NCBI GenBank assembly: GCA_045580085.1
Contig: JAZNND010000049.1
Coordinates: forward strand, 1,144-65,143
Reading direction: 5' to 3'
Length of the DNA: 64,000 nt
DNA from: Eubacteriales bacterium
Lineage (GTDB): Bacteria > Bacillota > Clostridia > Oscillospirales > CAG-272
In this document: positions 27,077 through 37,308 of the stretch, one piece after another
Position numbering within the stretch: the first letter of the stretch is position 1
How the letters are laid out: the number at the start of each line of letters is the position of its first letter
Notes under the pieces: model-generated
Seen by the model: the letters and a program-made list of their open reading frames with translations, nothing else
Told to the model about the DNA's origin: nothing
Database searches by the model: none
Position numbers and translations under genes: made by a program

Positions 27077-27916
27077 ATGTATACCGTTTCAAATGAGATG
27101 ATTTTATCGTTTAAGCAATGTCTGCTTGAAAATGAACGTGCCACAGCTACTGTGGATAAATATTTGCGAGATGTCAACACTTTCGTGATATGGCTTGCGG
27201 GAAGGCTGCTTCATAAATCACTTGTGCTTGATTATAAAAAGTATTTAAGCGAACGCTATGCCGTTCGGAGCGTTAATAGTATACTATCGTCTTTGAACGC
27301 CTTCTTTTCATTTCTTAACCGGAATGAGCTTCGCGTGAAGACGCTGAAAGTGCAACGTGAAATTTTTTCGTCTTCCGATAAAGAACTAAGCAAAACAGAA
27401 TATGAACGTTTGCTTTCTGCCGCTAAATCCAAGAAAAATGAGCGCCTCTATCTTTTGATTCAAACAATTTGCGCTACAGGTATTCGTATTTCCGAGCTTC
27501 GCTTTATCACTTGCGAAGCAATCGCAAACGGTTATGCCGATGTTAATAATAAAGGAAAACGCCGCCGCGTTTTTATACCGCGTATGCTGTGCAAAATGCT
27601 TGCGGTATATGTCAAAGATCAGAAAATAAAAAAAGGTTCCGTCTTCGTCACTAAAAACGGAAAACCGCTTGATCGTTCCAACGTTTGGAGCGATATGAAA
27701 AAGCTTGCCAAGAGTGCACATGTTTCCGCAAGTAAGGTTTTTCCCCATAATCTTCGGCATCTTTTTGCGCGCACCTACTATTCTGTTCAAAAAGATATCG
27801 TTCGCCTCGCTGATTTGCTCGGGCACACAAGCATCAACACAACACGCATCTACACAGTTGAAAGCGGTGAAATTCATCGTCGCCATATCGAACGCCTTGG
27901 CCTTTTGCGATGTTAA
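27077..27916 (+). CDS. site-specific tyrosine recombinase (XerC/D / phage-integrase family)
   Basis: 279 aa from the ATG at 27077 (GAAAGGA upstream). Has an N-terminal SAM-like core-binding domain and a catalytic set ATGIRISEL (R), NKGKRRRV (K), HNLRHLFA (HxxR), LLGHTSINTT (H) and RIYT (Y). Confidence 0.9.
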   Translation: MYTVSNEMILSFKQCLLENERATATVDKYLRDVNTFVIWLAGRLLHKSLVLDYKKYLSERYAVRSVNSILSSLNAFFSFLNRNELRVKTLKVQREIFSSSDKELSKTEYERLLSAAKSKKNERLYLLIQTICATGIRISELRFITCEAIANGYADVNNKGKRRRVFIPRMLCKMLAVYVKDQKIKKGSVFVTKNGKPLDRSNVWSDMKKLAKSAHVSASKVFPHNLRHLFARTYYSVQKDIVRLADLLGHTSINTTRIYTVESGEIHRRHIERLGLLRC

Positions 27917-27940
27917 CCACATAATAGTGATTATGTGGTA
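27916..27940. repeat. left inverted repeat (IRL) of candidate invertible switch; lox/dif-like core site
   Basis: ACCACATAATAGTGATTATGTGGTA. It starts on the last base of the recombinase stop codon. It is internally palindromic except for the central AGTG. Confidence 0.85.
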
Positions 27941-27971
27941 GAATGTTCGAAAATTAAAATAATATGAACAA

Positions 27972-28000
27972 ATTATAGCACTTTAGAAAAGAGAAGTCAA
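27972..28000 (-). promoter_or_regulatory. near-consensus sigma-A promoter inside the switch, currently pointing toward the recombinase gene (OFF for the giant gene)
   Basis: The minus strand reads TTGACTtctcttttctaaagtgcTATAAT. The -35 is at 28000..27995, the -10 at 27977..27972, the spacer is 17 nt, and there is a TGn extended -10. Confidence 0.75.
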
Positions 28001-28122
28001 CCTTTTTCCCTAAAAAAATCAATTAAAATTTCAAAATTTACATATTAAGCCCCCATATCTTTTTTCGCCATCAAATTTCTGGGATATTGTTTTTGTCATA
28101 AAGATATTTTTAATTTTGGCAA

Positions 28123-28147
28123 TACCACATAATCACTATTATGTAGT
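28123..28147. repeat. right inverted repeat (IRR) of candidate invertible switch
   Basis: TACCACATAATCACTATTATGTAGT is the reverse complement of IRL with one mismatch (A at 28145 where G is expected). Its central CACT is inverted relative to the AGTG of IRL. Confidence 0.85.
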
Positions 28148-28251
28148 GTTTTCCGAGAGTGGTTGATTCGAAAATATGAAAATAAGACTTATGTGAATGT
28201 GCATCACATTTGCATCAAGGGTATCATATAAAACTCAAAAGGAGAAAAGAC

Positions 28252-28338
28252 ATGAAAAAAATTATTTCGGGCTTTCTGGCAGTTTTAATGGCGGTTATGG
28301 TTTTTCCGTTTGCCGCATTGCCGTTAGACGCTTCTGCG
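28252..28338 (+). other. Sec signal peptide of giant protein (no lipobox Cys)
   Basis: KK n-region, hydrophobic core, and an ASA-A cleavage-type site at residues 27-30. Confidence 0.7.
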
Positions 28339-31300
28339 GCTGAAGCGGACACTGCTTCGCAAAATGCGCGTAGTGCAAATTATGCCGCGCAAGCGACTTC
28401 AGCAGAGGGGGAACCGATTGACGTATGGGACGGCACGGTTGCATCCGGTTTTGAGTACGGAAGCGGTACGGAAGAAGATCCTTATATCATCGCCACCGCG
28501 GAGCAGTTGGCATATTTATCAAAAATATCTGCTTCTAATTATTGCTGGGACTATTACTCTTTGGCGACCAGCATAGATTTGAATGGAAAAACATGGACTC
28601 CAATTCAAAATTTTTGTGGTTTTTTTGAAGGGAATGGCTATACTATTAGAGGCCTTTCTGTTTTAGAACCTATAAACGGAACTGTGGGACTTTTTTCTAC
28701 TTTGGGTTGCTACCTTCATATCGATGGTGGCAATGCAGGTACTGTAATCCAACCATGCGAGATTAGCAATCTGACGATTGAAATAAGCAGTATTAGAATC
28801 GCATATGATTGTTTGGATGTAGGTGGTTTAGTAGGAACAATGTATTGTGGAACGGTGAAAAATGTTTCTGTGTTTGGCGATATAAGCATTAGTAGTACAT
28901 CTGTAAATGTCGGGGGATTGGTTGGCAACTTTACAATTCCAAGTGATGCGCGTGGCAGTACTTATAGAGATATAATAGATTCTTCTTATTCGGGAAACAT
29001 TTCTGCAAGTGCAACGGGAAGCAGTGCAGGAGGAATTTGTGGCCTAATTTCCAATGCCAATATGAATACGTGTAGGTCAGCCGGAACTATTCAAGCAGAT
29101 TGTTCTGGTGGCCTTTGCGGCACAGCTACAGATTGTCTGGTGCTTAATTCGTATTCTAAAGCTACAATATATGGAAGAGGGGGTTTTTCTCCCAAAAGCG
29201 GTGGCTTATTTGGGGTAACTGAGAATTCTTATATTAGGAATTGCTATGCTTCAGGAGATATCAATGTTATTGCCGTTTGGGATTCAGTTGTATGGGCAGG
29301 CGGGGTGATTGGAGAAAGTAAAAAAGGAAGTGTGGAAAACAGCTTTTCTTTCAATAATTCTGTTTGGGGTGTAATAGAAAGTACAGCACAATCAACGGTC
29401 CGTGAAGCGAAAGTGGGAAAATTAATTGGAGACTCTTCCAATACATCCATTTCCTATTCTTATGTAAAAAGTAATACATCAATTCAACGTTCCGGACATC
29501 AAGTACATGATAATGGATGCAAGGATGATACGTATAGCCATCCTACCTTGACGACTCCTTCCAATCAAGTGGAAACAGGAACGATTTCTTCTGTTACTAA
29601 TGCCTTCATTTTCTCCACCCTTGGTTGGGATCGCTCTGTTTGGGCTCTTGACTCGGGCGAGTTGCCGCATTTGAAATGGGAAGATAAGCTTGGTTGCACC
29701 ACTCGCTTTATCAAGGACGGAAAAGTAATCGGCGTTGAATACAAAGAAGTAGATTACGGCGCAACCTATACGTGCAAAGCCGATCCCATTACCGGATACA
29801 ACGCCGGAGAAATCAATACCAAGGTCTACGCAGATAATAGTTTTTACACCATTGAATATACACCGAAAAACGATTGCAAATTGACGGTCGTGTGCAAGTC
29901 AACTACTACCGATAAAGTAATTGATGAAAAAGTTTTTACAAAAGGTGTATTTGACAAAGATTATACAATTAGTGCCGATCAACTGAATGTTACGGGATAT
30001 GAACGCGAGAATACCGCTGTCACCGTTACCATGACAGCGACCGAAAAAACGGTGGATGTTTATTTTACGCCGGTTGAGTCCGAGATTATAGTAACGCATG
30101 TGTACTATGACAAAGATGGAAACGTAGAAAGCCGCGAAACGGATCCTGTCCGTAAAATAAAATATGATGAGACAGTGACCGTATACCCTCGTACAAGAGA
30201 GGGCTACACGACATCGCAGGAGTCAATTGAAATTTCAGGTCAAACGGCATATAACGGCGGAACGCGCAAGTATGAAAGAGAATTTTATTATAATACCAAA
30301 ATTGTTACATATACGATCAAGTTCGTGGATGAAAACGGCACAGAAATAAGAGAGCATGAAGTAATTGAGCAGATAGAGGGCGAAAGGATTGAGCTTACCG
30401 CCGATACTGCGCCAAAAATCGAAGGATATTCTCTTGATGCTGACTCCCTTTTTGCAGAAAAGGCGATGGAGAACACCACGAAAACAATTAGGTATACTCA
30501 CAATAAATATGACGTTTATATCGAGTACGTGGTGGTGGATTACGATGGTAACGAGGATAAGTTCTGTTCGGATCCTGTAGCAACGGATGTTCCTTACGGT
30601 GACACAATAGAGGTTGCTTTAGATGATAAATATAGTAATTTGAACGGCTTTAATGGTAAAATAAAAATTACGCTTAATAAGTCCGAAGTTTTGTATCAAG
30701 AAAATGGCGGGCATTATGAGAAAGTGGTGCTGACTGACGAAGGGTGCATTGTTACCGTGGAAACACAGTATGAAGATGATGCCGATGCTACCACAGTATC
30801 TAAACCAGAGGTGGTTCACCACGGCGGACAAGTTCTGATTGAGCCTTCTGCCAAAGAGTTTTATACCGTTTATTTGTATGAAAAGCGCGAGAATGGTAGT
30901 TTGATTCAAGTAGGGCCTTGCGGCGAAGGCGTTTTGATCACCGATATCCAAAGCAATCGCTATTTTGTGGTGAAATATCAAAGAAATACCATTGCCTCAG
31001 GTGTGTGCGGCGATTTTATGCTTTGGACTCTCTATGAGGGAAATAATCTTTTGAAGATTAAGGGTACCGGTGACATGTATGATTATGCACAAGGAGAAGC
31101 TCCTTGGTATAATTATGCGGAAGAAATTTATGAGGTTCAAATTGCAGACGGTGCAACCTCCATCGGTTCTTATGCGTTTGACGGATGCGTAAATCTCACC
31201 AAGCTTCAAATCGGTGACAGTGTAACGAGTATTGGTTCACGCGCTTTGGAAGGCTGTTCGTCACTCCGCACATTAAGCCTCCCTGCGTCTTTGCAAAAAG

Positions 31301-34300
31301 TAGGAACCGCAGCCTTTGCCGGTTGTGCTCAATTAGAGGCGTTCACGCTTTCTTCGGATAATACATCGTTCGTATTGGATGGCGGTGCGCTTTATCACCT
31401 TGAAAGCAAAGCGCTGATCGCTTATCCGGCATCTCGAACGGGCTCGCTCTTCACGCTTCGAGAAGGGATCGTGGCGATAGCACCCTATGCTTTTTACGGT
31501 AATAAAAGAATTTCTTTTTTGAAGATCCCGCAACCTGTTCTCAAGGAGGACGGAAAGCCAACCTTTGAGTCCTTAAAAACCATCGGTGCGTATGCTTTTG
31601 CAAACAGCTACTTGAATACACTGGAACTTCCGTCTTCCGTAACGGAAATTGAGGAATATGCTTTTGCCGATGCTTATTGTACGAAGATCATCATTTATGG
31701 TGATTTGAGCTCCGTCGGAGACGGTGCTTTCAGTACAAAATGGTACAGCAATTTAAAAATCTATTTCAAGGGCAATGCGCCACTTAGCGTTGGTGAAAAG
31801 ATTTTCGGCGAAGCCAATGAAAAAATTTGCATCTACTATGCTTCCAATAATACCACTTGGCAAGATCAGATCACATATGATACCGTAGATTTAATGAAAT
31901 ATCCTTACTGGAATGATTATTTGGCATACGGTCACAGTAATATGGCGAGCGTTTCCGTTTATAACAGCGGAAATGAAAGCATATATGCCATTTTCGTCAT
32001 GTGCGACAAAACTCCGATTGAAGGTGTGAAGGTCTCCTTCGGTTCCGCCGATCCCAAAGTGACGGATGCAGACGGATTTGTATATTTCACCCATACAAGC
32101 ACAGTCACACAGGTTACTCTATCCGTACAAAAGGAAAATTATTATAGCATATACGACGTTTCATGTACGTACAATTTAAAATCGTTGGGCGTGGATTATA
32201 TCGATCTTGATACAAATTCCTCCGTCAAAGGAATTTCCAGTTTCGGCAATGATATTGCTAACGATACACAGAGCATCAACAACAAATACGACGGAACCAT
32301 TCCGATTTTGGTCAAAGGTGACACGGAGTTTGAGATCACAGCCATGCACTTGGTACAATGGGTATACGATGCCCAAAATCCTTCTTCCGAGCCAATCAAG
32401 AAGGTTCTTCAAACGGTGAAAGCCGGGGATCGTGATCTGGATGCGGATGGATACTGTTTGTTTAAAGTGGAGGCATCCGCATTTTCCTACAAGAAAAATG
32501 AGAATTTGCCGATTGCTGTGGTAATGGAAACAACATCCGGTGAAGAGCCTGTTGTAGAGTTTTTGAACTTAGAGGTTATCTCTGTTTCTTTGGAAATCAG
32601 TTTTGATGATTTGTTCGGTGATGCTAAACCGATATCGTTAGGGGACCTCGGACTTGATTTTTTGGGCGGCGTTTCGATTGATCTTGAAGAAGAAACAGAA
32701 TCAAGCAAGCTGAAGTTTAAAATCGTAAATGATGAAATTTACATTACTTATGATGTGGATTCCGACAAGATCTGGAAAGGTATCGATGCTTTTGAGGATA
32801 ATGTAATGTCTTTGACAGGTTCCGATCATCGGAAACTCAGCGAAATCGTTGAAAGTGCCAACACGCGCGGCAATCAATTTTTGAAAGAGGCGGCGGAGGG
32901 TACGAATAAACGGATGCAAAGGATGGGGGCATCGAGTAAAGTAAACAGCAATTTTTCCATTGAACCTATCTTGAGTGCAGGTATTGCGATCAAACTGACG
33001 AATGACGGCATAAGATCAATACGTACGGAAATGAAGCTCGGCGTTGCTTTTGGAGCTGAATGGAATGCTAATATTACGGTTGTATACGTTCCCATCACAT
33101 TCGGTGCGGAAATAAAGCTTGAGGCATTGGTTGATGTCCCCGATTTGGAGTATGATTTTTCCAAAAAGAAGCTTGGCTTTTCCGACAGCTTTTCGCTTGA
33201 ACTCGGCGGCTCGGTGAAAGTAAATGCCGGGCTCGGCTTCTCCTATCCCGTTGCTGCGGCACATTTAGGCTTTTATGGCAAATGCAGTGCAAAAGTTGAG
33301 ATAGCTCTCGGCAAAACAACTTATTTTGAATATTTGATGCTTTCCGGAGAGCTTGGTGTTTATATTAAACTTAAAGTCGGACCGTTTTCAGTCTTGGATG
33401 AAGAGTATGCACTTCTAAAAGGAAAATATGAGAAGTGGTATACCGAGAACGGCGTCTTAGTGCCGCGTGAACAGATTATGCTATTATCCGAGGATGATCC
33501 GTCAGGTGCTTTTGGAACCTATAATGGCATAGCAATCTATGACCTGTCATCTTACAGTCTTAGAAATTCTACAGCTGAACTCGATCTTGACGATGTGGAA
33601 TGGGGAGAAGAATTCGGCTTGACGGTGGAAAACAATACCTACGTTTATGCGGAACCGCAAATAATCGATTGCAACGGCATTTACGTGGCAGTATATATGG
33701 CACAAGCGGAAGAGCGCGCCGCGGCTGATGCTCAATGCTTGATGTACCGTATATACGATGCGAAAACAGAAACATGGTCGGAAGCTTCTCTCTTGGAAAA
33801 CGACGGCATGAGCGATTCGACTTTTTCTGCAAAATTCCATAACGGGAAATTGTATATCGCTTATGCGCATGCCAACAAAGTGATTGGTGAAGTTTCCGAA
33901 GAGAATGAGACCGAAGCCATCATTGATATGGCGAGAGCGCAAGACATTGCCATTTGTGTTTTGAATCCGCAAACAGGAACGGTGGAGAATATCACTGCTA
34001 TTTCCTCCGATGATGTTTATGAATTTTTGCCCGTTTTGCAGGAAGTGAACGGAACGCTTTATTTGGCGTGGATGTCGAATGATAAAGCAGATGCCCATTC
34101 CGTTTTCGGTATGAACACGAACAACAGTATTTGGGTAAGTACGCTTTCCGGCGGCGCATGGAGTGCACCTAACTGCTTGTTGTCGGATTGCAACCCAATT
34201 GCCGAAATGACACTTGGAAGCTATCAAAACCAACCTTACATCGCGATGATCTTGGATGACGATGCCGATTATTATACCTCACTTGACAGGAACGTATATC

Positions 34301-37300
34301 TTTTAGACACGGAAGGCAATGTGACATTCATCGATTGCGGCGGTATGGGACTTATCTCCTTGCAAAGTGCGGTGGTGGATGGAGAAGAAACATTTGCTTT
34401 CCACAGCAAAGGAAATATTCTCTATATGGATTCTAAAGGTGAATTTTCGGCATGGTACAGTGGAGCGCATGGTGCCGGCATTGATTACAAGCTTCTTTCT
34501 TTAACGGAAGACATCACCATGCTTTTGTGGAGTGAAGCTTCTTTGGAGAATGAGAAGGGGGAATCCATCTCAAAGGTTTATTTTGTACTGCATGAAGACG
34601 GTGGCGAATGGGGAGATGTGAGAGAACTCTTGACGGCATCCCAAAATATGATTTCGTTCGCTGCTACAGCCAACAACGGTGATGTTCAGGTAATCTATGT
34701 CTCGGCACTCATTCAGTCAGCTGAAAATGAGCTTATCATGCTTGGAAACATGTATTCCGATTTCTTTGATATGGATTACAGTTTCTTAGTAGAGGCAACG
34801 GATTTGGTATACAATTCCGAGGCGAACACGATTTCTTCCAAAGCAACGGTCATTAACACCGGTGTAAAAGAGATCAAACGGCTTGCCGGCATGGTTGCAG
34901 TGCTTGATTCTCAAAGCACTGTACGAAAGGTAAAGAAGTATTATCCCATCGGTCTTTATGATGTTAGTATTGGTTACGGTGAAACCGACAGCTGGGATAT
35001 GACTGCTGTTTTGCATCCGGATTGGGTGCAAAGTGAATGCGAGGTCGTCTTTACTGTTTTTGAGGGAAATGAAGAGGATTATCTTGCATATGTTGAACTT
35101 TTGAATCAAGCCATCGAAAACGGCGAAAGTGGCGAAAATATGGGAAGCAGCAGTAGCGGTAGTATCACGGATAAGAATGAAACAAACGGGATGCCGGCAA
35201 CTGCAAATAATGATTTTTATATCAACGGCGAACATATTATCGTTGGCGAAGCCGAATACTTATCGCTTAAGGTAGGAAAAAGCGGTAATGGGATGATGGG
35301 AATGGGTGAAAATGTTTTGAAGGTCTATAAAATCCATGAAGACGGCAAGGAGTTGATTTACAGCGAAAAAATTACGATACATGATGCTCGCCAAATGCAA
35401 TACTTCTTGGTAGAACTGCAAAAAGATTTTTACAGCGAAACAGATGCAGTTTTCGAATGCGTCATCGAGATTAGCAACACTGAGGATGTTGATTTGAGCA
35501 ATAATGTAGTGAGCATCCATGCGGAAAAGCCCGAAAATGCGGCACCAACCCTGTACGATAAAACGGCAATCGCGGCTGAGCTTTCGGCGTATTTCGGAAC
35601 CTTCGATAAATTCAAAGGGGAAGATTTGACTTTGGATATCACCCCCAACGGAAACGGCATATACGGTGTCACGGAGTCGGAGGGCGTGGTTAACAAGGTG
35701 GGTACCGTGGAAGAAAACGGGGTTCTCCATGCTACGGTTTCCGCAGAACAGCTTTCTCAGCTGTCTCTCGGTGAGCATGAGCTTCGTTTCCTGTTTAGCA
35801 CAAAGAACGGCTTTATTGATTGCGTTTTCAATCTCACCGTGATAGATAGCACTCCGATTCCCGTAGAGGGCACCGTTTCGATTCTTGGAACGCCTTCTCG
35901 CGGCAATAGGGTAACAGCGGATATATCCGGAGTCAGCACAAAAGAATTGACATATGAATGGATTATCAATGGAGAAGTGCTTTCAACGGAAAGTAGCTAT
36001 CAGATCACCAATAAAGATCTAGGCAAGGAACTTGTTGTTCGCGTTAGCGGTACCGGTTTTCATCAAGGCACTTTACAAAGCACCCCTGTTTATGTAGAAA
36101 AGCTACCGAGAACCTTGGGTGCTTTGAAAATCTCTTCTGCCATGGATTCTTCTGTTTCTTTGAAAAACATGTTCTATGTCGGTGACGGTGAAATCTATTA
36201 CGGATATTCGCAAGCGAACGATCCTTATGCGGTAACTAATTGGCAAGAGAGTACAAGCTTTGTGCTTCCTGAGGTAGGACAATACTTCTTCTTCGCTAAG
36301 GTTGCCGACAGTGCGACGTATCAAGATTCTTATACCGAAGGACTCTCGTATTCGTATCATAATGACAGCGGTCTGACCGTTGCCGGCTCTACCTTGTCCA
36401 TTCAAAGCGATATTACGATCAATTATTATGTTGATGCTTCCTTCTTGGAAACATATGATAATGTGTATATGGTATTTGCGCACACGAAGCATTTGAATGG
36501 TGGTGGAACGATTGATACGTTTGAAACGATTACCAATTATACCATTCGTCAAAGCGGAAAGTATATTGTTTTCTCTTATGAGGGAATTGCCGCAAAAGAG
36601 ATGGGCGATATGATTCGCGCTGTTGTATATGCGGAAAATGGCGAAACTTTGTATTGCGGTCCCACCGATTATTACAGCGTTTCCGCCTATGCATACAATA
36701 GAATTCAAAATTCTGCGGATGAGAAGATGGTGACTTTGGCAATTGATATCTTAAATTACGGAGCGAGTGCACAGATTTACTTTGGATACAATGAAAAGAA
36801 TCTTGTGAACAGCGAGTTGACACAAGAGCAAAAAGATTACGTAAAAGACGAAGTGCTTGTGGATAATGTTAAAGAATATATTCCCGGTGCGAATGCAAAT
36901 GTAGTGTTTGCAGGTTCTGCATTGCTCTTGGAGGAAAAAGTAGCCATTAAATACTATTTTAATGCCGAAGAATACCTGAAAACGCATTCGGATTTGAGTG
37001 ATCTCCAACTTGTGATTACCTTTGCGGACCAAACCGTTGTTATTCAAGGTGATGCCTTCGTTCATTCTGAGAAGAGTATTTATTATGCGGTTCTGGATGA
37101 ATTGGCAGCAAAGGATATGCGTGTAATATGTCGCGCAACGTTCTATTCCGATTACATGGGTGCGAGTGAGATTGAGCAAAGTGAAACGATGGTTTACAGT
37201 GTTGAGTCTTATGCGTACAGCATGCAAAACAGCACAAATGCGAATATGGTATCGCTAGTAAATGCGATGATGATTTACGGTGATGCCGCAAAGGATTATA

Positions 37301-37308
37301 TAGGATAA
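28252..37308 (+). CDS. giant secreted surface/adhesin-like protein (3018 aa): signal peptide, GLUG repeats, MucBP-like repeats, BspA-type LRR, large uncharacterised C-terminal part
   Basis: One uninterrupted ORF. I preferred the ATG at 28252 (AAAAGGAGAAAAGAC-ATG) to the TTG at 28210. The N-terminus MKKIISGFLAVLMAVMVFPFAALPLDASA/AEA is a Sec signal peptide. See the sub-features below. Confidence 0.9.
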   Translation: MKKIISGFLAVLMAVMVFPFAALPLDASAAEADTASQNARSANYAAQATSAEGEPIDVWDGTVASGFEYGSGTEEDPYIIATAEQLAYLSKISASNYCWDYYSLATSIDLNGKTWTPIQNFCGFFEGNGYTIRGLSVLEPINGTVGLFSTLGCYLHIDGGNAGTVIQPCEISNLTIEISSIRIAYDCLDVGGLVGTMYCGTVKNVSVFGDISISSTSVNVGGLVGNFTIPSDARGSTYRDIIDSSYSGNISASATGSSAGGICGLISNANMNTCRSAGTIQADCSGGLCGTATDCLVLNSYSKATIYGRGGFSPKSGGLFGVTENSYIRNCYASGDINVIAVWDSVVWAGGVIGESKKGSVENSFSFNNSVWGVIESTAQSTVREAKVGKLIGDSSNTSISYSYVKSNTSIQRSGHQVHDNGCKDDTYSHPTLTTPSNQVETGTISSVTNAFIFSTLGWDRSVWALDSGELPHLKWEDKLGCTTRFIKDGKVIGVEYKEVDYGATYTCKADPITGYNAGEINTKVYADNSFYTIEYTPKNDCKLTVVCKSTTTDKVIDEKVFTKGVFDKDYTISADQLNVTGYERENTAVTVTMTATEKTVDVYFTPVESEIIVTHVYYDKDGNVESRETDPVRKIKYDETVTVYPRTREGYTTSQESIEISGQTAYNGGTRKYEREFYYNTKIVTYTIKFVDENGTEIREHEVIEQIEGERIELTADTAPKIEGYSLDADSLFAEKAMENTTKTIRYTHNKYDVYIEYVVVDYDGNEDKFCSDPVATDVPYGDTIEVALDDKYSNLNGFNGKIKITLNKSEVLYQENGGHYEKVVLTDEGCIVTVETQYEDDADATTVSKPEVVHHGGQVLIEPSAKEFYTVYLYEKRENGSLIQVGPCGEGVLITDIQSNRYFVVKYQRNTIASGVCGDFMLWTLYEGNNLLKIKGTGDMYDYAQGEAPWYNYAEEIYEVQIADGATSIGSYAFDGCVNLTKLQIGDSVTSIGSRALEGCSSLRTLSLPASLQKVGTAAFAGCAQLEAFTLSSDNTSFVLDGGALYHLESKALIAYPASRTGSLFTLREGIVAIAPYAFYGNKRISFLKIPQPVLKEDGKPTFESLKTIGAYAFANSYLNTLELPSSVTEIEEYAFADAYCTKIIIYGDLSSVGDGAFSTKWYSNLKIYFKGNAPLSVGEKIFGEANEKICIYYASNNTTWQDQITYDTVDLMKYPYWNDYLAYGHSNMASVSVYNSGNESIYAIFVMCDKTPIEGVKVSFGSADPKVTDADGFVYFTHTSTVTQVTLSVQKENYYSIYDVSCTYNLKSLGVDYIDLDTNSSVKGISSFGNDIANDTQSINNKYDGTIPILVKGDTEFEITAMHLVQWVYDAQNPSSEPIKKVLQTVKAGDRDLDADGYCLFKVEASAFSYKKNENLPIAVVMETTSGEEPVVEFLNLEVISVSLEISFDDLFGDAKPISLGDLGLDFLGGVSIDLEEETESSKLKFKIVNDEIYITYDVDSDKIWKGIDAFEDNVMSLTGSDHRKLSEIVESANTRGNQFLKEAAEGTNKRMQRMGASSKVNSNFSIEPILSAGIAIKLTNDGIRSIRTEMKLGVAFGAEWNANITVVYVPITFGAEIKLEALVDVPDLEYDFSKKKLGFSDSFSLELGGSVKVNAGLGFSYPVAAAHLGFYGKCSAKVEIALGKTTYFEYLMLSGELGVYIKLKVGPFSVLDEEYALLKGKYEKWYTENGVLVPREQIMLLSEDDPSGAFGTYNGIAIYDLSSYSLRNSTAELDLDDVEWGEEFGLTVENNTYVYAEPQIIDCNGIYVAVYMAQAEERAAADAQCLMYRIYDAKTETWSEASLLENDGMSDSTFSAKFHNGKLYIAYAHANKVIGEVSEENETEAIIDMARAQDIAICVLNPQTGTVENITAISSDDVYEFLPVLQEVNGTLYLAWMSNDKADAHSVFGMNTNNSIWVSTLSGGAWSAPNCLLSDCNPIAEMTLGSYQNQPYIAMILDDDADYYTSLDRNVYLLDTEGNVTFIDCGGMGLISLQSAVVDGEETFAFHSKGNILYMDSKGEFSAWYSGAHGAGIDYKLLSLTEDITMLLWSEASLENEKGESISKVYFVLHEDGGEWGDVRELLTASQNMISFAATANNGDVQVIYVSALIQSAENELIMLGNMYSDFFDMDYSFLVEATDLVYNSEANTISSKATVINTGVKEIKRLAGMVAVLDSQSTVRKVKKYYPIGLYDVSIGYGETDSWDMTAVLHPDWVQSECEVVFTVFEGNEEDYLAYVELLNQAIENGESGENMGSSSSGSITDKNETNGMPATANNDFYINGEHIIVGEAEYLSLKVGKSGNGMMGMGENVLKVYKIHEDGKELIYSEKITIHDARQMQYFLVELQKDFYSETDAVFECVIEISNTEDVDLSNNVVSIHAEKPENAAPTLYDKTAIAAELSAYFGTFDKFKGEDLTLDITPNGNGIYGVTESEGVVNKVGTVEENGVLHATVSAEQLSQLSLGEHELRFLFSTKNGFIDCVFNLTVIDSTPIPVEGTVSILGTPSRGNRVTADISGVSTKELTYEWIINGEVLSTESSYQITNKDLGKELVVRVSGTGFHQGTLQSTPVYVEKLPRTLGALKISSAMDSSVSLKNMFYVGDGEIYYGYSQANDPYAVTNWQESTSFVLPEVGQYFFFAKVADSATYQDSYTEGLSYSYHNDSGLTVAGSTLSIQSDITINYYVDASFLETYDNVYMVFAHTKHLNGGGTIDTFETITNYTIRQSGKYIVFSYEGIAAKEMGDMIRAVVYAENGETLYCGPTDYYSVSAYAYNRIQNSADEKMVTLAIDILNYGASAQIYFGYNEKNLVNSELTQEQKDYVKDEVLVDNVKEYIPGANANVVFAGSALLLEEKVAIKYYFNAEEYLKTHSDLSDLQLVITFADQTVVIQGDAFVHSEKSIYYAVLDELAAKDMRVICRATFYSDYMGASEIEQSETMVYSVESYAYSMQNSTNANMVSLVNAMMIYGDAAKDYIG
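28650..29450 (+). other. GLUG-motif repeat region of giant protein
   Basis: Recurrent G-G-[LIV]-x-G motifs about every 25-30 aa: VGGLVGTM, VGGLVGNF, AGGICGLI, SGGLCGTA, SGGLFGVT, AGGVIGES. Confidence 0.6.
29690..30850 (+). other. MucBP-like beta-repeat region of giant protein
   Basis: Four to five repeats of roughly 70-90 aa with the pattern x-V-x-Y..D..G..I........G......P.I.GY (for example YTIKFVDENGTEIREHEVIEQIEGERIELTADTAPKIEGYSLD). Confidence 0.5.
31000..31870 (+). other. BspA-type leucine-rich repeat (LRR_5-like) region of giant protein
   Basis: Repeating ...I.IGDSVTSIGSRALEGCSSLRTLSLPASLQKVGTAAFAGC..L... and TIGAYAFANSYLNTLELPSSVTEIEEYAFAD units. Confidence 0.7.

Follow-up and report, generated by a model that had tools for sequence, protein, structure and literature searches.

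Dif-like paired palindromes beside an Xer-like recombinase gene as probable core sites of an invertible promoter switch in Clostridia

The locus and its paired palindromes

The subject of this study is a 64-kb stretch of DNA (hereafter the window) from an Eubacteriales bacterium of the Clostridia (contig JAZNND010000049.1), in which the gene for an Xer-like tyrosine recombinase is followed by two 24-bp palindromes and by the gene for a secreted surface protein of 3018 amino acids (aa). The palindromes, termed the left and right inverted repeats (IRL and IRR), enclose a short segment that carries a promoter (Table 1). In our view, with a probability of about 85%, IRL and IRR serve as core recombination sites in an invertible promoter switch that is worked by the adjacent recombinase.

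A repeat finder delimits two arms of 25 nt, 27916-27940 and 28123-28147, which are 96% complementary and have 182 nt in between. Read directly, IRL is ACCACATAAT-AGTG-ATTATGTGGT, or base by base A(27916)CCACATAAT-AGTG-ATTATGTGGT(27939); it forms a perfect 10+4+10 palindrome, or a 9+6+9 one if TAGTGA is taken as the centre. IRR is ACCACATAAT-CACT-ATTATGTAGT, that is A(28124)CCACATAAT-CACT-ATTATGTAGT(28147), with the arms of IRL around the reverse-complemented centre and a single arm difference, an A for G at 28145. An earlier note on this DNA, drawn from the letters alone, had described both sites in these terms; direct reading bears it out for each of them. The note had also placed the orientation of the sites in a short asymmetric centre alone, and besides the 4-nt centre only 28145 and one flanking base (27940 A / 28123 T) indeed tell an inverted from a direct copy.

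The pairing is unlikely to be fortuitous. When the whole window was searched for the arm pattern ACCACATAA-N6-TTATGTGGT with up to 3 mismatches, exactly two occurrences were returned against 0.01 expected, and none of 100 dinucleotide-preserving shuffles gave two or more. No third site was found in the 64 kb at this tolerance.

Table 1. Features of the proposed switch, in window coordinates
Feature	Position	Strand	Remarks
Xer-like tyrosine recombinase gene, 279 aa, presumed invertase	27077..27916	+	Pfam Phage_integrase and N-terminal SAM-like domain
IRL, putative recombinase-proximal core site	27916..27939		outer arm 27916-27924 ACCACATAA; hexamer 27925-27930 TAGTGA (asymmetric AGTG 27926-27929); inner arm 27931-27939 TTATGTGGT
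Presumed invertible segment, 184 bp between the 24-bp cores	27940..28123		AT-rich, 24% GC; homologous segments in both orientations among relatives
Sigma-70-type promoter	27972..28000	-	-35 TTGACT 28000-27995; 17-nt spacer; TG 27980-27979; -10 TATAAT 27977-27972
IRR, putative cargo-proximal core site	28124..28147		inner arm 28124-28132 ACCACATAA; hexamer 28133-28138 TCACTA; outer arm 28139-28147 TTATGTAGT
G-to-A variant in the IRR outer arm, arm position 3	28145..28145		direct reading
Presumed regulated gene, 3018-aa secreted surface protein	28252..37308	+	BspA-type leucine-rich repeats (LRR), MucBP, GLUG; ribosome-binding site AGGAG 28240-28244

The recombinase gene

The recombinase gene starts with the ATG at 27077, and its TAA stop codon (27914-27916) overlaps the first base of IRL. 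The encoded protein matches the Pfam family Phage_integrase (PF00589) above the cut-off (E 8.4e-27), in addition to its N-terminal SAM-like domain. Its best NCBIfam matches all fall far under the respective cut-offs, with 132 bits against 220 for XerA, 123 against 330 for XerD and 112 against 335 for XerC; the two "tyrosine-type DNA invertase" models NF007370 and NF007371, which we take to be of the FimB/FimE type, give 26 and 24.5 bits where their cut-offs are 221 and 222. The nearest solved structure by sequence is XerD (1a0p, E 1e-17), followed by XerA and XerH, and no match to Cre or FLP was returned at E<=1e-5. Residues R137, K159/161, H224, R227, H250 and Y259 align with the catalytic residues of XerD, presumably R148/K172/H244/R247/H270/Y279, and are invariant in 16 homologues. 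Judged by this alignment, the protein is a member of the tyrosine recombinase superfamily with intact catalytic residues.

The family is large: it comprises at least 8000 database proteins, 279-aa proteins of Oscillospiraceae and other Clostridia. Among the matches listed, the nearest non-self relative is 68% identical. A profile scan restricted to one genome per species found 584 relatives.

Co-occurrence of sites and recombinase in related loci

The related loci considered here are the best 80 of these 584 matches, with recombinase identities of 53-65%; DNA motifs played no part in their retrieval. Together with the window and loci L001, L091 and L092 they make up 84 tabulated loci, and statistics on site anatomy refer to 78 non-redundant site pairs.

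The site is present in 73 of the 80 loci, nearly always no more than about 30 nt away from the stop codon of the recombinase gene. A second copy follows in 66 of them (69 of the 84 tabulated), at 208-343 nt downstream apart from one outlier at 149 nt. The earlier note had proposed such a search for the motif beside related recombinases, and it had named a ubiquitous, unpaired terminator hairpin as the contrary pattern; what occurs next to the recombinases is paired inverted copies. The exact 24-mer of IRL was recovered from metagenome contigs only twice, each time directly after another, more distant recombinase gene and with an inverted partner 251 or 343 nt away.

Loci without a complete pair are mostly contigs that end inside the switch, and in 11 of the 80 the sequence breaks off past the recombinase gene but before the expected IRR. 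Such truncation is, on a rough estimate, far above chance, and it is the behaviour expected of an assembler at regions of mixed orientation. Contigs ending within or just past the switch are those of L027, L030, L033, L035, L039, L047, L050, L052, L077, L079, L088 and L124-L131, several IMG/VR entries included.

In some relatives one member of the pair has a further, third site nearby, identical in its centre and in direct orientation: at 32-33 nt in L017, L024, L025, L046, L064, L065, L066, L073 and L085, at 54-55 nt in L080 and L090, at 102 nt in L057 and at 41 nt in L119. The window has no such copy. A third copy could permit alternative inversions or serve as an accessory or decoy binding site.

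The surroundings of the recombinase also vary. Upstream of it, many relatives (among L001-L010 and L093-L112) carry a conserved set of genes for TnpV, DUF6809 and an XRE-type helix-turn-helix (HTH) protein, which the window lacks. In L104 and L111 a second gene with a 279-aa product, matched to the recombinase family by size only, lies just upstream, an arrangement that may mean tandem cassettes. The first gene past IRR was compared in 50 related loci and is very diverse: TetR regulators (7), Band_7 with zinc-ribbon proteins (3), BspA LRR proteins (2) and EAL/GGDEF proteins (2) occur next to collagen-repeat, S8 peptidase, SLH/S-layer, acyltransferase_3, ABC ATPase, TIR (CAP12/Pycsar-like), Wzy and MACPF types. 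The cassette itself is probably mobile.

Anatomy of the site

The family consensus reads ACCACATAAT-NNNN-ATTATGTGGT, with near invariance at positions 4-10 and 15-21, weaker conservation at positions 1-3 and 22-24, and four central nucleotides that vary freely. IRL departs from it nowhere, and the central 18 bp of both IRL and IRR equal the consensus. The arms stay unchanged across recombinases that are 45-68% identical.

For the test of the centre, pairs were chosen by arm match and distance only, the centre itself being ignored. The centres of the pairs so chosen are reverse-complementary in 78 of 79 cases and direct in none, the exception being a spurious intragenic match. At least 40 classes of centre occur and none is palindromic, where about 5 palindromic centres would be expected among 78 loci; the probability of their absence lies between 0.007 and 0.08, depending on the independence assumed for the loci. 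The earlier note had recognised in the palindromes the core-site design of tyrosine recombinases, and this reading gains from an adjoining gene that encodes an intact tyrosine recombinase and ends at IRL, as well as from arms that are kept around a hypervariable centre in 78 loci.

Comparison between the partners of a pair also bears on the extent of the core. At positions 10-15 no pair shows a mismatch between partners. Ten loci depart from T/A at positions 10/15, and each time the partner mirrors the change, even though the palindrome within the site is broken by it. By comparison, 24 of the 31 deviations at arm positions 4-9 and 16-21 have no mirror image in the partner (Fisher 1.7e-5). Because partner identity holds at positions 10-15 while arm changes are mostly unmirrored, the comparison favours an obligate-identity stretch of 6 bp (T-NNNN-A) with 9-bp arms over a 4-bp core; of the two divisions offered by the earlier note, it is thus the one with 9-bp arms around TAGTGA that is preferred. 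Six mirrored base pairs are what would be expected as the signature of a strand-exchange (overlap) region. Recombinase divergence is unrelated to changes at arm positions 4-10 (rho -0.04) and weakly related to those in the outer triplets (rho -0.23, p 0.04), and this correlation provides no usable signal of protein-DNA co-evolution.

The variant at 28145 falls on arm position 3, the least conserved arm position of the family. Mismatches to the consensus are most numerous in the cargo-proximal outer arm (86) and fewest in the recombinase-proximal outer arm (44). In the cargo-proximal outer arm, 14 of 78 loci have the same type of variant (T, or A on the + strand at IRR); for the other three arms the count is 12 of 234 (Fisher p 0.0013, the loci being non-independent). 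Recurrent weakening of this half-site may tune the rate or the bias of switching, which is a lead and as yet unproven. The likening of this asymmetry to that of fimS in the earlier note is an analogy only.

Evidence for inversion within the family

Nearly all related switches hold a near-consensus promoter of the form TTGACA-17-TGnTATAAT. Strong, clear calls were obtained in 59 of 69 switches, 40 of them facing the recombinase (OFF) and 19 facing the cargo (ON). In both states the -10 element lies mostly about 14-46 nt from the repeat that it faces. Homologous interiors are flipped between loci, and their orientation agrees with the state given by the promoter in 55 of 56 comparisons. The inner arms take part in this movement: in the subgroup with a CGAA centre, a distinctive "GCA" inner arm belongs to IRR when the locus is OFF and to IRL when it is ON. 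Inner arms therefore travel with the segment, and outer arms keep their place. The clearest pair of close relatives is L093 and L103, whose recombinase genes (89% identical) and cargo genes (82%) have the same orientation, but whose interiors reach 87% identity only after one of them has been reverse-complemented.

The contig of L099 (JGI sample 3300024268) offers a further view of the process. Its end (2340-2402) consists of the interior, the right inner arm and the centre, followed by the left outer arm and 14 nt of left flank in exact reverse complement. This fold-back is the opposite-orientation junction, within the same sample. Diagnostic arm variants confine the exchange to 24-mer positions 10-21, an interval that includes the centre and is bounded by position 9 of the left outer arm and by position 3 of the inner arm. 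We read this fold-back and the contigs that end inside the switch alike as assembly signatures of populations of mixed orientation. Orientation is not heterogeneous everywhere: ten contigs with one identical recombinase (P0065) are all of one orientation, and heterogeneity is seen only in the P0120 and P0057 sets.

Altogether, the expectation of the earlier note that mutually inverted centres lead to inversion rather than deletion agrees well with the family, in which all 78 pairs are inverted and none is direct, and in which relatives hold the segment in both orientations with mirrored promoter placement.

The state of a locus also shows in its outer triplets (positions 1-3 and 22-24). In OFF loci the sites tend to be internally palindromic there (19/33 and 15/33), and in ON loci the matching outer-triplet arms stand in different sites (9/17 and 6/17), as if the OFF configuration were "pure" and the ON configuration a hybrid.

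Helical spacing and phased AA/TT

Centre-to-centre distances within the family cluster at 208, 220, 230, 241, 251, 262, 272, 284, 294 and 303 bp. The best period of this spacing is 10.46 bp (bootstrap 10.32-10.66), with a vector strength R of 0.81, a phase offset of 0.07 bp and p<0.0005; no random set came near it. The lattice spans 20-29 helical turns and has 90% of the 78 loci within 2 bp of it, and 11 further IMG/VR loci fall on the same lattice. The interiors are AT-rich (29% GC) and show a 10.5-bp periodicity of AA/TT (z 29 against shuffles). Such phasing is a hallmark of curved DNA and suggests that the loops are intrinsically bent. Lattice and phasing together would fit a protein-bridged loop of 20-29 turns and argue for synapsis of the sites in cis. 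A limited search of the searchable literature found no earlier report of helical phasing in invertons, and searches for the motif strings returned only unrelated primers and similar.

Promoter, surface-protein gene and proposed mechanism

The promoter in the window matches the consensus at 11 of 12 positions, has an extended -10 element and lies 32 nt from the repeat that it faces; near-consensus promoters of relatives keep a comparable gap, with clusters near 14, 23-25, 33-36 and 45 nt. It points to the recombinase gene. Because it points away from the 3018-aa gene, the window copy is, on this reading of the sequence, in the OFF state. The surface protein contains LRR_5 (4.6e-33), MucBP (4.4e-5) and GLUG (5.5e-4) domains. 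The locus thus shows the features by which an inverton is recognised: inverted repeats around a short promoter segment, beside a gene that could be driven after inversion.

In the mechanism that we propose, the recombinase would bind as a dimer to the two near-identical 9-bp arms of each site (ACCACATAA / TTATGTGGT), and the sites would synapse across the 184-bp AT-rich loop. Strand exchange would then take place across the 6-bp TAGTGA / TCACTA, predicted to be the sole part that needs identity in both partners, and the asymmetric AGTG/CACT would set the relative orientation, leading to inversion and not deletion. Inversion would move the TTGACT-17-TGnTATAAT promoter to about 28063-28091 on the + strand, some 150 nt upstream of the 3018-aa gene, which would be the ON state. 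The flipped state would carry the junctions ATTATGTGGTATTGCCAAAATTAAAAATATC (IRL with the reverse-complemented interior) and TTTTCGAACATTCTACCACATAATCACTATTATGTAGT (the reverse-complemented interior with IRR).

Transcription in the OFF state has consequences of its own. The promoter then reads through IRL and enters the recombinase gene in antisense at its 3' end, likewise in the 40 OFF-state relatives, and this antisense reading could make recombinase expression dependent on the state of the switch. Longer relatives (L001:3494-3575, L093, L103) hold one or two hairpins in the segment, one of them followed by a T-run; in the OFF state they are so directed as to keep transcription of the recombinase gene from running on into the cargo. 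The short segment of the window has no such hairpin terminator.

Upstream of the recombinase gene the window encodes an EamA transporter and DHDPS, and no HTH gene lies there. The 27-38 kb stretch, which comprises the recombinase gene and the giant surface-protein gene, has a GC content of 39-44% against 47-52% in the flanks. This lower GC is consistent with horizontal acquisition of the entire module of switch and cargo.

Alternative explanations

If the palindromes acted mainly in RNA, the recombinase mRNA would be terminated or stabilised at its 3' end by IRL, the surface-protein transcript would carry IRR as a hairpin in its leader, and no recombination would be involved. IRL does begin at the recombinase stop codon, and each repeat can fold into a 10-bp stem with a 4-nt loop (minimum free energies of -16 and -12.6 kcal/mol for 61-nt stretches, z -3.9 and -2.0). 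However, neither hairpin is followed by a U-tract, and a terminator scan of 27700-28400 found no terminator-like site. Moreover, it is the sequence of the arms and not just their pairing that is kept across 78 loci, the supposed loop is always reverse-complemented in the second copy, the arm deviations at positions 4-9 and 16-21 mostly lack a counterpart in the partner site, and flipped interiors, the fold-back contig and the helical lattice would be left unexplained. We regard this explanation as very improbable; a secondary role of the palindromes in transcripts is possible. A plain terminator, considered separately, was rejected for want of a T-run and of any terminator-like site. It is slightly harder still to credit that the palindromes are operators, bound by a symmetric dimeric factor such as an XRE-type HTH protein, with a loop that represses the promoter between them. 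A 10-4-10 palindrome is typical of operators for HTH dimers, an HTH gene directly precedes that of the recombinase in relatives, and helical phasing is typical of repression loops too. Nevertheless, the window has identical arms with EamA and DHDPS genes in the place of an HTH gene, an operator gives no reason to keep a hypervariable centre reverse-complemented between copies in 78 of 78 pairs, the interiors are found flipped, and the site accompanies the recombinase in loci that were fetched by the recombinase alone.

The Xer-like recombinase and its dif-like site also recall the attachment or resolution sites of a mobile element, with the recombinase as integrase or resolvase, or a site of dimer resolution like dif itself. 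The deviating GC content of the module, the TnpV-DUF6809-HTH genes beside relatives and their very diverse cargo point the same way. Yet the sites form an inverted pair at a distance of only 208 bp, with just the promoter between them and neither the recombinase nor the cargo; the 64 kb hold no third site, where dif is one site per chromosome; and the related pairs include no direct one. This alternative, too, is very improbable, and the module may well be horizontally mobile by another route, which is separate from what the two sites do. A greater, if still small, chance is given to a locked relic, that is, a genuine switch by descent that is stuck OFF and no longer inverts here.

Several observations weigh against an active switch in the window, and a relic would accommodate some of them. 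Only one orientation was seen at this copy, and no second assembly of the species emerged from exact-protein look-ups (recombinase, DHDPS, EamA) or from the search of metagenome contigs with the IRL 24-mer. The A at 28145 could weaken a half-site. The spacing of 208 bp corresponds to 20 turns minus 1.3 bp and makes this the shortest on-lattice member, and the interior (27941-28122, 182 nt) shows no significant 10.5-bp AA/TT periodicity (p 0.25). More generally, the family loci share ancestry and the p-values given here overstate their independence; a 6-bp core is not separable from an 8-bp one by sequence because positions 8-9 and 16-17 hardly vary; and for the window copy the stoichiometry of binding, the exact positions of cleavage and continued flipping are inferred, binding and cleavage by analogy with Xer/dif. 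Against a relic stand the recombinase, whose open reading frame is intact with all catalytic residues, the near-consensus promoter, the unaltered central 18 bp of both sites, and the presence of the same arm variant in 14 of 78 loci. An invertible promoter switch worked by the adjacent recombinase is the reading that we retain.

Relation to known recombination systems

The earlier note had likened the architecture of the sites to lox, FRT and dif together. In lox and FRT, inverted binding arms enclose a short asymmetric spacer that sets polarity, and this spacer must match between partners, which gives rise to heterospecific variants. The comparative signature of that rule is present here, as an asymmetric centre, the absence of partner mismatches at positions 10-15 and the inverted arrangement of 78 of 78 pairs. 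The dimensions differ: arms measure 13 bp and spacers 8 bp in lox and FRT, and the window site has 9-10-bp arms and a 6-bp centre, four positions of which are variable. Nor are Cre and FLP close relatives of the recombinase. Site sequence and protein similarity together single out dif, of the three, as the genuine relative.

Published dif sites are GGTGCGCATAA-TGTATA-TTATGTTAAAT in E. coli, ACTTCCTAGAA-TATATA-TTATGTAAACT in B. subtilis and CACGCCGATAA-TGCACA-TTATGTCAAGT in F. alni (PMC3025954). The window site shares ATAA-T....A-TTATGT with all three, including the T...A ends of the 6-bp centre (PMC3025954), so that ATAA-TNNNNA-TTATGT describes the common part. On the side of the protein, XerD, XerA and XerH are the nearest structures and the catalytic residues align. 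Both arms of the window site resemble the XerD half-site, as would be expected of a single homomeric recombinase. In contrast to Xer/dif, the recombinase scores far below the equivalog cut-offs for XerC, XerD and XerA, and the system has two inverted sites 208 bp apart, beside a gene and around a promoter, where Xer/dif has a single site at the terminus. Furthermore, the predicted outcome is inversion and not resolution, the centre is hypervariable between loci, and there is no hint of FtsK control.

Among promoter switches, fimS of E. coli offers one comparison: the tyrosine recombinases FimB and FimE, encoded adjacently, invert a promoter segment of roughly 300 bp that controls a surface structure. 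The window shares with it a tyrosine recombinase gene beside a promoter segment for a surface structure. The repeats of fimS are 9 bp long and flanked by dissimilar half-sites, its two recombinases are biased in direction, and it has sites for IHF and Lrp; none of these features was found at the window locus.

Other surface-protein switches are closer in taxon or in enzyme. RecV of C. difficile, which acts on cwpV, flgB and others, is likewise an XerC/XerD-family recombinase of Clostridia, and cwpV has a segment of roughly 200 bp upstream of a large cell-wall protein gene (PMC2784873). The repeats of cwpV are imperfect and 21 bp long, control works through formation of a terminator with the promoter outside the segment, and recV is non-adjacent and serves several switches (PMC2784873); in contrast, the window switch has an internal promoter, an adjacent recombinase and dif-like palindromes. 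In Mycoplasma and Ureaplasma, Xer1 (vpma) and XerC (mba) are encoded beside the loci where inversions switch surface proteins (PMC2268961; PMC3599477). There, several genes are shuffled past one promoter via sites in 5' untranslated regions, the site sequences described are unrelated to those of the window, and a pair of palindromic cores enclosing a small promoter cassette is not among their reported features.

A probable published counterpart is the inverton group 139 with its invertase group 35, from a 2025 survey of a defined gut community; the sections of that survey drawn on here list 33 invertons, 32 of them from Clostridia and nearly all with an adjacent tyrosine recombinase (PMC11892184). 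According to the same sections, a Clostridium sp. D5 example has 25-nt repeats and a 206-bp interior, an Intestinimonas example measures 241 bp from start to start, and flipping is seen in sequencing reads (PMC11892184). Both examples fit the 10.46-bp lattice, and geometry, taxon and adjacent recombinase agree with the window family, the likeness resting on these features. In those sections the group is described without the dif-like 9+6+9 anatomy, the rule of the variable centre or helical phasing (PMC11892184). The switch is of a known kind and belongs to a huge family that has probably been catalogued already as group 139.

Significance for the family and its host

The basic design of the switch is standard, and its main interest lies in the helical-lattice rule and in how unusually cleanly the site is defined by comparison. 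We tentatively extend this to a broader picture, which we hold to be somewhat less probable than its opposite: a very large, portable family of Xer-derived switch cassettes, in which nearly universal arms recruit the enzyme, an evolvable 4-6-bp centre serves as a private address against paralogues, and synapsis needs an integer number of helical turns on bent DNA, perhaps without host bending proteins. To our knowledge, and in the literature searched, so strict a physical design rule is undescribed for natural invertons. If this picture is true, there would be dozens of naturally orthogonal site variants for one small recombinase, and the variety of natural centres suggests an orthogonal set of sites for engineering.

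The comparison also provides a testable model of the site, with 9-bp arms, a 6-bp core that requires identity and a free code of 4 nt, and it links an abundant recombinase family of Clostridia to dif-like chemistry. The lattice with its phased AA/TT amounts to a testable physical rule for the closure of DNA loops of roughly 200 bp during inversion. For the organism itself, 27916-28147 is best regarded as a switch in annotation and in studies of expression: the 3018-aa BspA/MucBP adhesin-like protein is probably made by a subpopulation only, and the assembly shows the silent state.

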